From contig JAVVFY010000011.1 in the NCBI GenBank assembly GCA_032249395.1, positions 1 through 18,507 on the forward strand: DNA of 18,507 bases. Reading direction: 5' to 3'. Numbering within the stretch: position 1 is the first letter of the stretch; the number at the start of each line of letters is the position of its first letter. Origin of the DNA: Candidatus Aenigmatarchaeota archaeon (lineage in GTDB: Archaea > Aenigmatarchaeota > Aenigmatarchaeia > CG10238-14 > SpSt-28). The position numbers were made by a program, and so were the translations under genes. A model generated the notes under the pieces. That model saw nothing but the letters and a program-made list of their open reading frames with translations, was not told where the DNA came from and did not search any database. Positions 1,014 to 5,966 of the stretch are shown piece after piece.

Positions 1014-1326
1014 CTCGGGCGATTGGGAGTGGCGGGCTTACCGCTCGCCCGAAGGCTCGCGGCTTACACCCCCACCCCATCAACGTTATCGTCTATAACA
1101 GCCCTCGTCTCTCTGCCGGGTCTCCCCAACAGAGAGAATGGCCGTCTATTTTTCCGGGTGGTTTCCCCCTTAGATGCCTTCAGGGGTTATCCACTGGGGC
1201 GTGGCTGCCCGGCATGCCAAATGGACAACCGGTACACCAGAGGCCCCGGGAGCGCGTTCCTTTCGTACTTGCGCTCCCTTCCGGTCAGACGGCCAGCACC
1301 CCCAGTAGATAGCGACCGAACTGTCT

Positions 1327-1458
1327 TTGCCGCTGCATGCGAAGATAGAGTAGAGAGTAGACTATAGATTAAAATTTAGGTAAGTTTACGACCCGAGAAC
1401 GATACCCAATTCATCCTTAGCAAAATGCTACGTCTTTGGGTAGTGCTTCGCATGCAGT
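1327..1458 (-). other. 132-nt ORF-less BHB intron after ~G2597 (E. coli numbering)
   Basis: 12-bp terminal stem (1333-1344/1446-1457), central helix GUCG/CGGC, bulges UG|A and AA|A. Removal restores GUCGUG|AGACAG. Confidence 0.93.
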
Positions 1459-1490
1459 CACGACGTTCTGAACCCAGCTAACGTCCCCCT

Positions 1491-2273
1491 TTAACCAGTG
1501 GACACCTGTACCCATAGCCTTGAGGAGGTAAAATTTACAAAATTTTTCCATTCTTCAAAATTATGAAAAGAATTTTTCCCTTCATTACACAAATTAGCTA
1601 CTACATCTAGGATTTTATTTTTCTCAATCCCAAACCATGTTTTACTTTTCTTGGATATTCTTACTCCATCTAAGAATCTAATTTCCTTGGCAAATTTCAA
1701 TATTTCTTCTTTCTTTGTGAGTACTACTTCATTTTTCCATATCGACGGTCTAAATCCTAGTTTTTCCAGTATTTTCTTTATGAAAATCTTTAATGATTCA
1801 TTTTTAACTGTTACTTGAATTCTTTTGTTAACTATCCATAATTTCTTGGTTTTGTGCCACTTACATCCCAAAATCACTGAGCCTTCGGCGGAAAAGAAAC
1901 TTCGAATGAAACTTATTAGGTTATCAGAGGATATACTTTCTATTGATGGTAGCCTAATATTGTTGTTTTCCTTTCTTTTCCAATCTGGTATAAAGGTCTG
2001 GAGAATTTCTACGACTGTCTTGTTACAAACTCTAATGATTTTAACTTGTTTTCTATCGACTCTTTCTGTAAAATGCAAATCTCCGAATATTATCTTCATA
2101 TTATCCTCACATACTTGTATCAACTTTTCTTCTTTTGCAGCAAATATTACTTCAAAATGTCTATGTTTTTTGTTAATTCTTACGGTACCATCTGCTAATA
2201 GAAGACCAACTATTTCCCAAAACTCCTTCTTATTTTTTACCTCCTCAATTTGGCCGCTTGCAGTTGAGGGCAT
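1491..2273 (-). CDS. Double-motif LAGLIDADG homing endonuclease
   Basis: Motifs WEIVGLLLADG and FIRSFFSAEG. The ATG at 2273 follows an SD-like GGGTGAT. The ORF crosses both boundaries of intron 1514-2249. Confidence 0.9.
   Translation of the reverse strand: MPSTASGQIEEVKNKKEFWEIVGLLLADGTVRINKKHRHFEVIFAAKEEKLIQVCEDNMKIIFGDLHFTERVDRKQVKIIRVCNKTVVEILQTFIPDWKRKENNNIRLPSIESISSDNLISFIRSFFSAEGSVILGCKWHKTKKLWIVNKRIQVTVKNESLKIFIKKILEKLGFRPSIWKNEVVLTKKEEILKFAKEIRFLDGVRISKKSKTWFGIEKNKILDVVANLCNEGKNSFHNFEEWKNFVNFTSSRLWVQVSTG
1514..2249 (-). mobile_element. 736-nt BHB intron after ~A2542 carrying most of a LAGLIDADG homing endonuclease gene
   Basis: 14-bp terminal stem (1520-1533/2235-2248), central helix GGCC/GGCU, bulges AA|A and AU|G. 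Removal restores GGCCAA|GGGU. AT-rich insert in GC-rich rRNA. Confidence 0.92.
2250..2257 (-). other. 8-nt 23S micro-exon GCGGCCAA (~2535-2542, helix 91)
   Basis: Needed to rebuild UGGCCGUGCAGCA|GCGGCCAA|GGGU, in which UGGCCG pairs with CGGCCA. Bounded by BHB cut sites on both sides. Confidence 0.9.
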
Positions 2274-2357
2274 TCATATCACCCAATTTCTATATATTAA
2301 TTCTACACCAATATATAAACTTTATCTGGTTAAGGTTCAATAAAGAACGCCCTCAAT
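2258..2357 (-). other. 100-nt BHB intron after ~A2534 containing a promoter, RBS and start codon
   Basis: 12-bp terminal stem UUGAGGGCGUUC/GAAUGCCCUCAA, central helix GCAG/CUGC, bulges CA|A and AA|G. Confidence 0.9.
2278..2326 (-). promoter_or_regulatory. BRE/TATA promoter and Shine-Dalgarno for the LAGLIDADG ORF 1491-2273
   Basis: On the minus strand: GATAAAG (2326-2320), TTTATATA (2319-2312) and GGGTGAT (2284-2278), the last 4 nt before the ATG. Confidence 0.65.
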
Positions 2358-2414
2358 TGCTGCACGGCCAGGAGGGGGGGAGCCGACAGCTACGCACCAA
2401 CGCGCCGGGTCAAT

Positions 2415-2465
2415 TTGCCTGTCGCTATCTGCAAGGAAACGTAGACCCACGCAGATAGCTTTACT
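2415..2465 (-). other. 51-nt BHB intron after ~2477 (helix 89 loop), largely antisense to 23S 2052-2079
   Basis: Stem GCUAUCUGC/GCAGAUAGC. Relaxed BHB with central helix GCCC/AGGC (one mismatch) and bulges AC|A and AA|A. Removal restores GCCCAC|AUUGACC. Confidence 0.88.
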
Positions 2466-2637
2466 GTGGGCTTTCACCGGCCACGGGCCCATTATCCCCG
2501 AGGTAGCTTTTCTGATACCACCGGCCCCCATTAATGGGAACCGATGTATCGCTAACCCACGCTTTCGCGGCTGGAACCCTCGCTTTGTGGGTTCCAGTCA
2601 GCCCACCTTTTGCGTTTGCACTCTACCCCGGATTTCT

Positions 2638-2722
2638 TTCGGGTGAAAAACTCCCATCAATAGCTACCCCGCTAATCATTCAATCATTCGGGAGCGACCT
2701 TATCATTACGGGAGTTTTTCAT
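2638..2722 (-). other. 85-nt BHB intron after ~C2306 (helix 84 loop)
   Basis: 12-bp terminal stem UGAAAAACUCCC/GGGAGUUUUUCA, central helix CGGG/CCCG, bulges UC|A and AA|A. Removal restores GGGUC|AGAAAUCC. Confidence 0.93.
2657..2706 (-). ncRNA. Putative intron-encoded box C/D sRNA
   Basis: In order: AUGAUAA (C), 12-nt guide GGUCGCUCCCGA, AUGA (D'), UUGA spacer, AUGAUUA (C'), 12-nt guide GCGGGGUAGCUA, UUGA (D). This is the canonical archaeal spacing, and each box is 1 nt off consensus. Confidence 0.72.
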
Positions 2723-2795
2723 GACCCGGGTGAGGTGAGCTTTGGGCCCCCTCGATATCTTTTCGAGGGGGTGCCGCCCCAGCCGAACTGCCCAC

Positions 2796-2828
2796 TTCGC
2801 CAAGAGTTAGCCGATTGACTAACTCTTT
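2796..2828 (-). other. 33-nt minimal hairpin BHB intron after ~G2234
   Basis: Hairpin AAGAGUUAGUC-AAUC-GGCUAACUCUU, central helix CGCU/GGCG, bulges AG|A and AA|G. Removal restores GCGCUAG|GUGGGCAG. Confidence 0.9.
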
Positions 2829-3122
2829 CTAGCGCTGTCCCCTCGTCGGGTAAGCTGTAGAGTCCCAGAAGGCTGGTGTTACACTTGCCCCTCGGCCTCG
2901 GCCGAAGCCTACGCCTGATAGCGGGTCCCAGCTACTCTATGCAACCAGGACTCTACAGCAACGCCAGGCTGCAGTAAAGCTCTACGGGGTCTACGTTTCC
3001 CACTGGGGGTCTCCGGCCTATTCACCGGAAAGCCGATTTCGCCGGGTCCCACCCCGGGACAGTGCCCAGGTCGTTAAGCTGTTCACAGGCCGCCATTTAA
3101 GCGGCAAGGGATTATGCTACTT

Positions 3123-3167
3123 GTGTCGCCCTAGGCGGCGATCATTAAATCAGATGACCGCCTGAGA
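3123..3167 (-). other. 45-nt BHB intron after ~A1927
   Basis: Central helix GUCG/CGAC, bulges UA|U and AC|A, inner stem AGGCGG/CCGCCU. Position 1927 is an established archaeal 23S intron site. The loop contains CUGA-UUUA-AUGAUCG. Confidence 0.88.
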
Positions 3168-4650
3168 TACGACGGTCAGAGTTACCGCCGCCGCTCTGCG
3201 GGGCTTAGCCCGGTTGGAACCGGGTTTCACACACCGCAGCTGGGCAAGCCTCAGGGACTGTACTCATCCTTTCGGACTAGCAGTCCCCTGCGTTTTTGTT
3301 AAACAGTCGCCTGGGCCTTGTCACTGCAACCTGCGGTCCCTCCCATCCTTTGTCCTCTAATGAGGACTCAGGATGGTCAAGACCACAGGCACCCCTTCTA
3401 GCGAACATACGGGGCCAACTTGCCGATTTCCCTGGGGTGGGTTCTCCCGACACGCCGTTCCCTTCTCAGGAAGCCCACCTGTGCCGGTTCTCGGTACGGT
3501 CTAGGGGGATCCTTGTGGATTGCCTTTTCACCGGCTCCAGGGATCGGCCGAACTTCCCATTCGGGAAGCCCATCCTGCCTTCAGCCTCTTCTCCTCATTA
3601 CGAGACTCCGAGGCCTTAAGCAGTTGGCTTGCGTCGGCCTACCCCGAAGCGTCGGCAATCCACCCTAGCCTTGCGGCACGTACCCCCTAGGTTCCGGAAT
3701 ATTAACCGGATTCCCTTTCTCGGGCACGCCGATTAAGGGTGCCCTTAGGACCGACTAACTGCCGGCTGACGAACATTGCCGGCAAACCCTTGGGCTTCAG
3801 GCGGCCGGGATTCTCACCCGGCTCGGCTGCTACTTTCGGCGGGATCTGCATTGCTGCGTGGTCCACTGGAGCTCACGCCCCAGCTTCTGCCCACGCAGCA
3901 CGCCCCCCTACCAGGCCTCTTCGGCCTCCGGGGTCTCGGTGGTCGGCTTAGTCCCTTCCATCTTCAGGGCACTACCCCTCGGCGGGTAAGTTGTTGTACA
4001 CTTCTTAGCTGATGGCTACTTTTAGGCCCACAGCCCCGCTGTCTAAGGGGTAGTACCCCTTCGTCGTTTAGCCGACACTTAGGGACCTTAACCCCGGTCT
4101 GGGTTGTTCCCCTCACGAGTGCCGAGCTTACCCCAGCACTCATTTTCCCGCCGTCTACGGGGCTGGCGGATTCGGAGTTTGACAGAGAGGCTGAGCCTTT
4201 CGGCCCTTGACCCCTCGATCAGTAACTCTACCCCGCCAGCACCCTCGGGCGAGACTGCTCTGTGGAGCATATCGGGGGGAACCGGCTATGAGGCCGCTCG
4301 ATTGGCTTTTCACCCCTAATCCTGGCTCACGAGAGGGATTGGCATCTCACCACCTCTATCGGGCCTCCATCCCCCTTTCGGGGGACTTCACCCTGGCCAG
4401 GATTAGATCGCGGCCCTTCCGGTCGTAGGCGAGTGACTTCAGGCACTTTCATACCCCGCGCCTCGCTCTTTCGAGCTGCGCGCAAGTCGCTTTCGCTTCG
4501 GCTTCGTGGTTTCACCACTTAACCTCGCCACTCGCCTACACTCCCCGCCCCGTTTTTCCAAACGGACGCCAGGACGGTGTAAGCTCCCTCTCGCTTTTTC
4601 AGCTTCGAGGGAGCACCTTTCCCGCCCTGGCAGACTATAGCCACCTGGTT

Positions 4651-5346
4651 TCAGGCTCTTTTAATGGGAGACAAGTAGGTTTTCCTTACCAAAGGGATTG
4701 TTTGCAAGAATGTCAAAGCATTTTTATTCCTTATTCTTAGACGAAACGCATTGTTAGAATGTTTATAGAGATAGGGTCCGTTAGAGTTTATCCCCAATTT
4801 ATTCAACATTAGCTTTAAGTCTGATAAAGGTGGACATTCTGTTTGATTATTCCATGAATGGTATACATAGATTACCGGTTTACCATCTTCAAGACATATA
4901 CTCCCTTCTGCATCAACAAATCCTGCAATATACCATTTCTGAATTTCTGGAGGAGCTTCTAAGATTAATCTTGGGGTTCCCCACCATTTTTGTGTTTTAT
5001 TCGGTGGATACTCGAAAACTTTTGTAAAGAAAAGAAATAATGGTTTTGAATCTACTTGCCATACGAAATCTTCCCCACTTTTCATTATTTTTACTTTTTT
5101 GTTAAATAGATCCTGTGAGATGCGATTTACTACATTTTCTAAGAATGCTTGATCTTTCTGATAGATTCTTACCTTATAACTTCTCTTGGCTCTGCTTAAA
5201 TTTCCGTCTCTAAGTAGACCAACAAAGTATGCAAGAGGAGGGGTAAGTTTCTTGGGGATAGCTATGCTGTTTTTCCTTAAATTCATCTCGAGAGTAACGT
5301 TTATGGGTATTGATGGATGTATTGGTATATCTATGTCTGGATTCAT
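4651..5346 (-). CDS. Double-motif LAGLIDADG homing endonuclease
   Basis: Motifs LAYFVGLLRDG and WYIAGFVDAEG. The linear stop at 4651-4653 lies in the downstream exon. Confidence 0.92.
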   Translation of the reverse strand: MNPDIDIPIHPSIPINVTLEMNLRKNSIAIPKKLTPPLAYFVGLLRDGNLSRAKRSYKVRIYQKDQAFLENVVNRISQDLFNKKVKIMKSGEDFVWQVDSKPLFLFFTKVFEYPPNKTQKWWGTPRLILEAPPEIQKWYIAGFVDAEGSICLEDGKPVIYVYHSWNNQTECPPLSDLKLMLNKLGINSNGPYLYKHSNNAFRLRIRNKNALTFLQTIPLVRKTYLSPIKRA

Positions 5347-5394
5347 ATTTATATATATTGTTTTATAGTATTTAAAGCTTACTACTTGTCTCCT
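4661..5394 (-). mobile_element. 734-nt BHB intron after ~A502 (domain I) encoding a LAGLIDADG endonuclease
   Basis: 12-bp terminal stem GGAGACAAGUAG/CUACUUGUCUCC, central helix GGUG/CAUU, bulges AA|A and AA|A. Removal restores GGGGUGAA|AAGAGCCUGAAACC. Confidence 0.92.
5369..5376 (-). promoter_or_regulatory. TATA box for a probably leaderless endonuclease transcript
   Basis: TTTAAATA ends 22 nt upstream of the ATG at 5346, and no SD motif is visible. Confidence 0.55.
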
Positions 5395-5924
5395 TTCACC
5401 CCGTTTGCACGGTGCTTTTCAGCTTTCCGTCACCGTACTAGTGCGCTATCGGACTTGGGATGTGTTTAGGGTTGGATGTTAATGCCACCCAGCTTCCCAC
5501 TGCCAAACCAGGCAATGGTACTCAGGATACCTGGAATCTTCCTTCCCTCCTTCCCCTACGGGACTATCACCCTCTAAGGTGGGGCATTCCAGCCCACTTC
5601 GGGTCGGAGGGTTAGGAAGTGCCCAGGTCCTGCAACTCCACATTCCACTTGGCTTATCGCCAAGCGGTTCGGTTTGCCCTCTGCCGGTTTCGGTCGCCCC
5701 TACTCCCGGCATCTCGTTTGATTTCTCTTCCTGCGGGTACTGAGATGCTTCACTTCCCCGCGTCCCCCTTCCAGGCTTTTAGGCCTGGAATGCCGCTTAA
5801 CGCGGCAGGATTCCCATTCAGGCATCCGGGGGTCTACGGCTGCATGCGCCTAACCCCGGCTTATCGCAGCTTGCCACGCCCTTCCTCGGCTCCCAAGCCG
5901 AGCCATCCACCAGGTGGCGTACCT

Positions 5925-5966
5925 CCGGCCGGAAACCCTTTGACCCCAAGATCCTGCGGTAGTTTC
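5925..5966 (-). other. 5' arm of the 23S pre-rRNA processing stem (BHB)
   Basis: Pairs with 972-1013. Predicted cut between 5939 and 5938. Confidence 0.9.

Follow-up and report, generated by a model that had tools for sequence, protein, structure and literature searches.

The 23S rRNA Gene and the 85-nt Insertion

The window analyzed here is an entire contig of 18.5 kb from an archaeal genome of 0.75 Mb with 31% G+C, and the sequencing runs that contain its DNA carry hot-spring metagenome labels. Its minus strand holds a 23S rRNA gene at 1017..5935, identified with Rfam RF02540 and a motif search. Several insertions interrupt this gene: its main body runs from 5935 to approximately 2358, an A-loop exon lies near 1480-1455, and the 3′ part is found at 1298-1017. 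Unless stated otherwise, positions are those of the window, and all features of this gene are on the minus strand.

Alignment to RF02540 revealed an 89-nt surplus in a hairpin loop at model position ~2400. The hairpin, which we take to be helix 84, carries an insertion in the loop equivalent to E. coli 2305-2311, between 2306 and 2307. E. coli numbering was read from the E. coli row of the 23S alignment of Dennis et al. 2015 (PMC4644070, Additional file 3). Joints in RNA contigs and comparison with intron-less relatives define the insertion as an 85-nt intron of the bulge-helix-bulge (BHB) type at 2638..2722; because of a repeated A, which leaves a 1-nt ambiguity, 2637-2721 is an equivalent placement. 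Eleven relatives carry the intron-less allele GGGUCAGAAAUCC at this site. The 85-nt intron has no open reading frame and lacks the endonuclease by which a mobile rRNA intron is recognized.

Splicing and Circularization

Splicing was followed in assembled contigs, not raw reads, from four metatranscriptome runs of four studies, which were placed on the 23S gene. In all four runs, position 2636 is joined to 2722 with 85 nt skipped. One of the joined contigs shows no difference from the window over 215 nt, one RNA contig crosses three consecutive spliced sites, and the sequence of the exon–exon joint is the same as the intron-less allele of the 11 relatives. A back-joint from 2722 to 2638, the junction expected of a circular intron, was present in run X15 (one of the four) at a depth of 19.7. 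The joints come from RNA contigs, and an intron-less strain with identical flanks would give the same exon joint. These contigs demonstrate exon joining and a circular intron at the RNA level, and they bear out the original prediction that 2638..2722 is a 23S rRNA intron. Since the circle junction is seen, the intron RNA persists after excision.

The same data bear on the possibility that the 85 nt are an expansion segment retained in mature 23S rRNA, with two kink-turns that recruit L7Ae as a ribosomal protein. The insertion does lie in a surface hairpin loop, and L7Ae binds kink-turns in archaeal 23S rRNA. However, contigs in all four RNA runs lack exactly the 85 nt, the depth of the X15 contig with joined exons was 24,935 vs 93.8 for the contig holding the insert, and the circular junction is present. 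A retained expansion segment is therefore highly improbable.

The splice sites lie in a BHB motif. The 5′ strand of its 4-bp central helix, CGGG (2725..2728), is contributed by the 5′ exon, and the 3′ strand, CCCG (2643-2640), by the 3′ end of the intron. This helix is flanked by two 3-nt bulges, one on each strand. The first, U2724 C2723|A2722, comes next after the CGGG strand and contains the 5′ splice site, while the second, A2639 A2638|A2637, contains the 3′ splice site (3′ element, 2637..2643). Inside the intron, UGAAAAACUCCC (2710..2721) pairs with GGGAGUUUUUCA (2644..2655) over 12 bp, 2721-2710 with 2655-2644, and this inner helix doubles as the terminal stem of the sRNA described below. 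All four central base pairs are formed in all 15 homologous introns, and both 3-nt bulges are kept. The central helix covaries, from CGGG/CCCG to CUGG/CCAG in G013 and G011 and CGGG/CCUG in G039. The inner helices range from 7 to 15 bp across the 15 introns and are unrelated in sequence.

The strict hBHBh′ arrangement is not formed at this site, as no contiguous outer helix adjoins the 3′ bulge, so that the intron is of the relaxed BHB type. Heteromeric splicing endonucleases have been linked to relaxed BHB motifs. The genome encodes two splicing-endonuclease paralogues (C2:53656-53934 and C3:60241-60486, in open frames of 225 and 408 aa), which fits the many relaxed BHB sites in its rRNA genes, and it also encodes RtcB.

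Other Insertions in the rRNA Genes

Three further mini-introns were found on the minus strand of the 23S gene, at 2414-2464 (51 nt), 2795-2828 (33 nt), and 3123-3167 (45 nt). RNA joints support the 51-nt intron in all four runs, the 45-nt intron in three of four, and the 33-nt intron in three of four with a 1-nt shift. The C/D box pattern was not found in these three introns, which are probably too short for a dual guide; the 33-nt intron ends 12 nt upstream of the P-loop.

A larger intron of 734 nt (4660-5393, minus strand) is spliced in three of the four RNA runs and has a circular back-joint in X15. Its open reading frame (4651-5346) encodes a 231-aa LAGLIDADG protein (Pfam PF14528, E 1.4e-7), and it is a classic homing-endonuclease rRNA intron.

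Further downstream, the 23S alignment breaks at ~2358 and the last 250 nt are found at 1298-1017; the gap holds a 260-aa LAGLIDADG open reading frame (1491-2273). A search of the genome for the 3′ part of 23S rRNA located it nowhere else than at this position further down the window. RNA contigs of run X16 join 2358/2360 back to 5940/5912, which would make a circle of the 5′ 3.58 kb, and depth falls below position 2361. The region from ~2358 to 1017 may represent one large, unusually processed intron, or the 23S rRNA may be fragmented.

The 16S gene (contig C13, 566-3110, locus L031) spans 2545 nt for 1478 model positions, with approximately 1 kb of insertions that include surpluses of 152 and 105 nt. 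Among the relatives, locus L017 (G033) has ~35 extra nucleotides a few bases into the 3′ exon (AGAAAUCGGAUGUAGGUAAAUUACUCUGACUGGUUAUCCGG), which may be a second small insertion. Locus L018 (G034) has a gap of ~970 nt near the same 23S site (945 nt by the flank parse, which is unreliable there), with no match to the sRNA model.

The Intron as a Dual-Guide Box C/D sRNA

Read on the minus strand, the 5′ exon runs into the intron as GGGUC|A-UGAAAAACUCCC-GUA, followed by box C, D′ guide, box D′, loop, box C′, D guide, and box D, after which U-GGGAGUUUUUCA-CCCGAA|AGAAAUCC leads from the 3′ end of the intron into the exon. Box C is AUGAUAA (2700..2706), the D′ guide is the 12-nt GGUCGCUCCCGA (2688..2699), and box D′ is AUGA (2684..2687). 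A 4-nt loop, UUGA (2680-2683), separates it from box C′, AUGAUUA (2673..2679), which is followed by the 12-nt D guide GCGGGGUAGCUA (2661..2672) and box D, UUGA (2657..2660). The layout C-12-D′-4-C′-12-D had been proposed from the window sequence and matches base for base. The four boxes are degenerate and are canonical only in their UGA cores.

In a core alignment of 15 intronic and 2 free-standing homologues (n = 17), the UGA cores are invariant in the C, C′, and D′ boxes and are present in 16 of 17 D boxes; the D box of G020 reads CUAA, with one G·A pair broken. Spacers of 12 + 12 nt occur in all homologues except G019 (13 + 12), that is, in 16/17. Position 6 of box C forms a standard pair with position 1 of box D in 17/17 (UA 10, AU 5, GC 2), and so does D′ position 1 with C′ position 6 in 16/17 (AU 7, UA 7, CG 2). 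Thus, the C/D pair of boxes has the UGA cores and closing pair of a kink-turn, with degenerate outer box positions, and the D′–C′ loop, 3-11 nt long among the homologues, has the features of a kink-loop. Beyond this alignment, box conservation in homologues had been put forward as a check on the proposal, and the full C/D architecture proved to be retained by 15 intronic homologues and by at least 15 that are free-standing.

General motif searches are less informative. No curated C/D family of Rfam scored above threshold, LSU_rRNA_archaea alone reached its gathering score in the window, and the sRNA family described here is absent from Rfam 15. A loose C/D regular expression gave 5 matches in the whole genome vs 8 in a shuffled genome; this intron was the sole match within the two rRNA genes. 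By a rough estimate, the loose pattern would arise by chance within one 85-nt intron in ~5 of 10,000 cases and is not diagnostic alone.

The D Guide and the Nucleotide Equivalent to U2438

The D guide forms a duplex of 10 bp, one of them G-U, with AGCUACCUCG (2499..2508), ~130 nt downstream of the intron in domain V. Counted from box D, the fifth base of the guide lies opposite U2505, the equivalent of E. coli U2438 and the predicted site of 2′-O-methylation. This pairing had been noted before and was reproduced here. In this genome taken by itself, the D match is not significant, being equalled by 179 of 2000 shuffled guides, and the D′ match to 16S rRNA described below was equalled by 229 of 2000. 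The single genome therefore does not prove targeting, and the targeting claim is carried by comparative and RNA evidence instead. The D guide also has a second 10-bp match at about window position 5264, inside the 734-nt intron.

The D target could be read in the 23S rRNA of 25 genomes. In 22 of these, 9-11 guide pairs (at most one of them G-U) are unbroken at the same site, and an A at position 5 always faces the target U. Changes in guide and target are paired: most genomes combine the target ACCUCG with the guide GAGG, four g2 genomes and G001 have ACCCCG with GGGG, and G037 has AACUACC with GUAGUU, while a G-U intermediate is seen in G000, G004, G006, and G010. Deviations include an A × C mismatch at position 4, adjoining the target nucleotide, in G001, and just seven consecutive pairs in G040, where the spacer may hold an extra base. 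In G028, G025, and G038 (loci L066, 4580-4640 on the rRNA strand; L007, 520-580; and L020, respectively) a mini-insertion, 31-33 nt long in G028 and G025, lies inside the target (AGCUAC^...^CUCGGGG), so that the full D duplex could form only on spliced rRNA.

The D guide of Nanoarchaeum equitans sR14 contains GGAGUAGCU and is listed with the target 23S U2712 in consensus numbering (Dennis et al. 2015, PMC4644070, Additional file 1). According to Additional files 1 and 3, U2712 is the U of AAGCUAC, the very nucleotide predicted here. The guide–target covariation across relatives supports the original prediction that the D guide is aimed at the U2438 equivalent of its host 23S rRNA, where methylation is predicted.

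These comparisons also decide against a functionless mini-intron, the relic of a mobile rRNA intron in which C/D-like motifs and the guide match arose by chance. Such a relic would be in keeping with a loose box pattern no commoner in the genome than in its shuffled version, with guide matches that lack significance in a single genome, and with a gene that also holds three other mini-introns and two LAGLIDADG introns. However, 15 introns with wholly diverged stems retain the boxes, 12-nt spacers, and D guide, and this divergence also excludes assembly copies of one sequence as the source of the homologous introns. Furthermore, the kink-turn pairs covary, guide and target covary, and free-standing genes have the same architecture. 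We regard a chance origin of the motifs as very unlikely.

The D′ Guide: P-Loop or 16S Hairpin

Although the original prediction found no convincing D′ target in the window, comparison across the family points to one, the 23S P-loop (GCUGGGGCGG at 2783-2774). The P-loop segment GCUGGGGCGGCA (2772..2783) lies 55 nt upstream of the intron and is the family-wide D′ target. Guide position 5 falls on the second G of GGGG, and the N+5 nucleotide would be G2779, equivalent to E. coli G2251. To our knowledge, G2251 is methylated in all three domains. According to the main text of Dennis et al. 2015 (PMC4644070), C/D sRNAs of three archaea are predicted to target this nucleotide.

Among 17 genomes with a readable, uninterrupted P-loop, a count that excludes genera g1 and g15, the D′ guide pairs with the P-loop over 8-12 consecutive positions covering position 5 in 11. 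In the remaining six, the run is 5-7 positions long; these include G020 and G025, whose P-loops were read separately from the main table, and G011, whose run consists of seven Watson–Crick pairs only. Genus g15 has a replaced D′ guide, which matches best at GAUCAAGGGU, a site ~30 nt upstream of the intron.

In the genus of the window, all four members carry the D′ guide GUCGCUCCCGA, with 11 of 12 guide bases identical while the surrounding stems have diverged. Here, 9 of 12 positions of the window guide pair with the P-loop (2783-2772; 7 Watson–Crick pairs and 2 G-U), at position 2 and positions 4-11, with a C × U mismatch at guide position 3 and an energy of -15.3 kcal/mol. By comparison, the guide forms nine Watson–Crick pairs (-19.1 kcal/mol) with UCGGGAGCG, a site in a variable hairpin of 16S rRNA (contig C13, 1407-1399) that is identical in three genus members. 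Judged by pairing, the D′ guide of this genus thus fits the 16S hairpin better than the P-loop, and both sites are candidate targets.

Two other sites had been named for the D′ guide. The 16S region near ~775 reads GGGGAGCAAUCGGG and does not fit; the match UCGGGAGCG lies ~70 nt further on. The weak match at 5692-5700 does exist (9 bp, one G-U, guide positions 4-12) but is one of several at that level. A shared 16S target, GCCGGAGCG, was considered and rejected: it is matched by the D′ guide of G013 but forms merely 6 bp in the window genome. A search for tRNA targets gave no match of at least 9 bp to the D′ guide inside any ARAGORN tRNA of the genome.

Intronic and Free-Standing Copies

Copies of the sRNA were searched for with a covariance model of its core, in 41 relatives and then in 151 sampled genomes of the class. 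Exactly one strong match was found in 30 of the 41 relatives, 15 of them in a 23S intron and 15 elsewhere. Two strong copies never occur together in one genome; the additional match in G011 is weak (E 0.0045). The 15 free-standing loci are preceded by A+T-rich, promoter-like sequence, and most have a short G+C terminal stem. Of 11 genomes with an intron-less 23S gene, 10 hold a free-standing copy and one, G027, holds none. In the window genus, the model matches all four genomes in which the 23S region is assembled and none of the five others, while all seven genomes of genus g2 have the free copy. Both states also occur within a single family (f1).

Across the class, 46 of the 151 sampled genomes have one match each. 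Thirteen further loci were read, with 16 remaining matches left out: four, in family f2 of the same order, are intronic, and nine, in other orders, are free-standing and bear the same two guides. The free-standing state looks ancestral and the intronic state derived, because other orders carry free-standing copies. The intronic sRNA of the window genus most closely resembles the free copies of g2 and g3, with which it shares the GGGG guide variant, and all four of its box variants are common to it and G017 of g2. In a neighbor-joining tree of 1136 columns, built without support values, the free-standing copies fall in two clades; this tree is crude, splits family f2, and is used as a hint only.

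The intron had been described as a useful, domesticated one rather than a parasite relic. The direction of change in that description may be reversed, as the free-standing copies in other orders suggest that a guide gene became an intron. Tentatively, and with somewhat less than even confidence, we suggest that a C/D guide gene switches between a free-standing gene and a 23S BHB intron at a fixed site. A possible route is the insertion of a circular sRNA, or of its gene, into the rRNA gene, followed by co-option of the tRNA-splicing machinery.

The free-standing copies also bear on whether the C/D particle acts mainly in cis, as a helper of folding or splicing that bridges two stretches of domain V or presents the BHB motif to the endonuclease, with methylation secondary or absent. 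In favor of such a role, the intron has its two family-wide targets within one domain, at 55 nt on the upstream side and 130 nt on the downstream side; the mini-insertion in the D target of G028, G025, and G038 makes the guide span two exon ends; and the degenerate boxes could weaken catalysis. However, at least 24 genomes have the same two guides in free-standing form, which implies that the guides work outside of cis, and the circle represents an RNA that persists after excision. In addition, position 5 of the D guide is always an A facing the same U, which the methylation rule needs and a chaperone does not. A role mainly in cis therefore seems unlikely, though it is a more serious contender than the relic or the expansion segment.

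Proposed Mechanism

We consider it very probable that the 85-nt element is a 23S BHB intron whose whole body is a dual-guide box C/D sRNA, with methylation predicted. The genome encodes the corresponding machinery, with Pfam matches above cut-offs for L7Ae-family proteins (PF01248, two genes), Nop5 (PF01798), and fibrillarin (PF01269); the Nop5 gene adjoins the fibrillarin gene.

On this model of a spliced guide, the intron would be transcribed within pre-23S rRNA, and the splicing endonuclease would cut at the two 3-nt bulges (UC|A and AA|A) flanking the 4-bp helix. RtcB would then join the exons, restoring the 7-nt hairpin loop UCAGAAA, and close the intron as an 85-nt circle. The sRNA would use the 12-bp inner helix for its terminal stem, while the C/D kink-turn and C′/D′ kink-loop would be binding sites for L7Ae and the platform on which Nop5–fibrillarin assembles. 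Pairing of the D guide with AGCUACCUCG is predicted to direct 2′-O-methylation to the U2438 equivalent, next to the peptidyl-transferase ring; we infer this from the N+5 rule and guide–target covariation. Across the family, the D′ guide would pair with the P-loop and place a methyl group on G2251. In the window genus, the D′ guide would face a choice between the P-loop with one mismatch and nine perfect pairs to the 16S hairpin loop. As part of the rRNA transcript, the guide would need no promoter of its own, and each 23S molecule made would yield one copy of it.

Significance

Archaeal rRNA introns are usually viewed as selfish homing elements or their remains. The present case suggests an rRNA intron that, through its predicted guide function, is part of ribosome biogenesis and is aimed at the peptidyl-transferase region of its host RNA. 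First, it would extend the single textbook case, that of tRNA-Trp, to rRNA, in DPANN-type archaea with tiny genomes. Second, since intronic and free copies alternate among close relatives, comparison offers a way to test how guide-bearing introns, and possibly BHB rRNA introns, arose. Third, the covariance model defines a family with one copy per genome across the class and predicts methylation at the equivalents of G2251 and U2438. If the switch from gene to intron is real, some archaeal rRNA introns would have an origin that is not selfish, the intronic snoRNAs of eukaryotes would have a counterpart in archaea, and in a reduced genome the supply of guides would be coupled one-to-one to the synthesis of rRNA.

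Comparison With Known Systems

BHB introns in rRNA genes are known, both those that have homing endonucleases and those that lack them. A C/D guide in the intron of pre-tRNA-Trp has been described in Euryarchaeota (Haloferax volcanii, and Pyrococcus sR50), as cited in Breuer et al. 2021 (PMC7994747), where circular C/D sRNAs also appear as already known. A 2013 review (PMC3608112) still named non-coding RNAs derived from rRNA introns as something to be searched for. A full-text literature search, with most subscription journals outside its coverage, turned up no rRNA intron described as containing a C/D guide. What appears new here is not the rRNA BHB intron, the C/D guide in the tRNA-Trp intron, or the circular C/D sRNA, but a guide that lies in, and is released from, an intron of the rRNA that it is predicted to target.

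The closest relative in design is the tRNA-Trp intron, in which the body of a BHB intron is likewise a box C/D sRNA that guides 2′-O-methylation of its own host RNA, as is predicted here. In that case, however, the host is a tRNA and the targets, positions 34 and 39, lie in the flanking exons. The intron described here has a 23S host and targets in domain V at distances of 55 and 130 nt, and its guide also exists as a free-standing gene in relatives.

Individual guides have counterparts elsewhere. N. equitans sR14 (PMC4644070) has a D guide for the same 23S nucleotide, but it is a free-standing gene whose second guide has no predicted target and hence is no guide for the P-loop. G2251, the target of the family-wide D′ guide, is also the predicted target of Thermoproteus tenax sR7 (Dennis et al. 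2015); yet in G2251 sRNAs such as sR7, the partner guide is directed at U2544 and not U2712, and these are free-standing sRNAs of Crenarchaeota or Methanopyrus.

As an intron, the element resembles the crenarchaeal rRNA BHB introns (Desulfurococcus mobilis 23S with I-DmoI; Thermoproteales 16S), which are also excised from rRNA and circularized, but those carry homing-endonuclease open reading frames or have no known function. In its logic, it resembles the eukaryotic intron-encoded snoRNAs, in which a methylation guide is released from an intron of a host transcript and its expression is coupled to the host gene. The eukaryotic guides differ in being released from spliceosomal introns of mRNA or non-coding hosts by exonucleolytic trimming, and their host is not the target rRNA.
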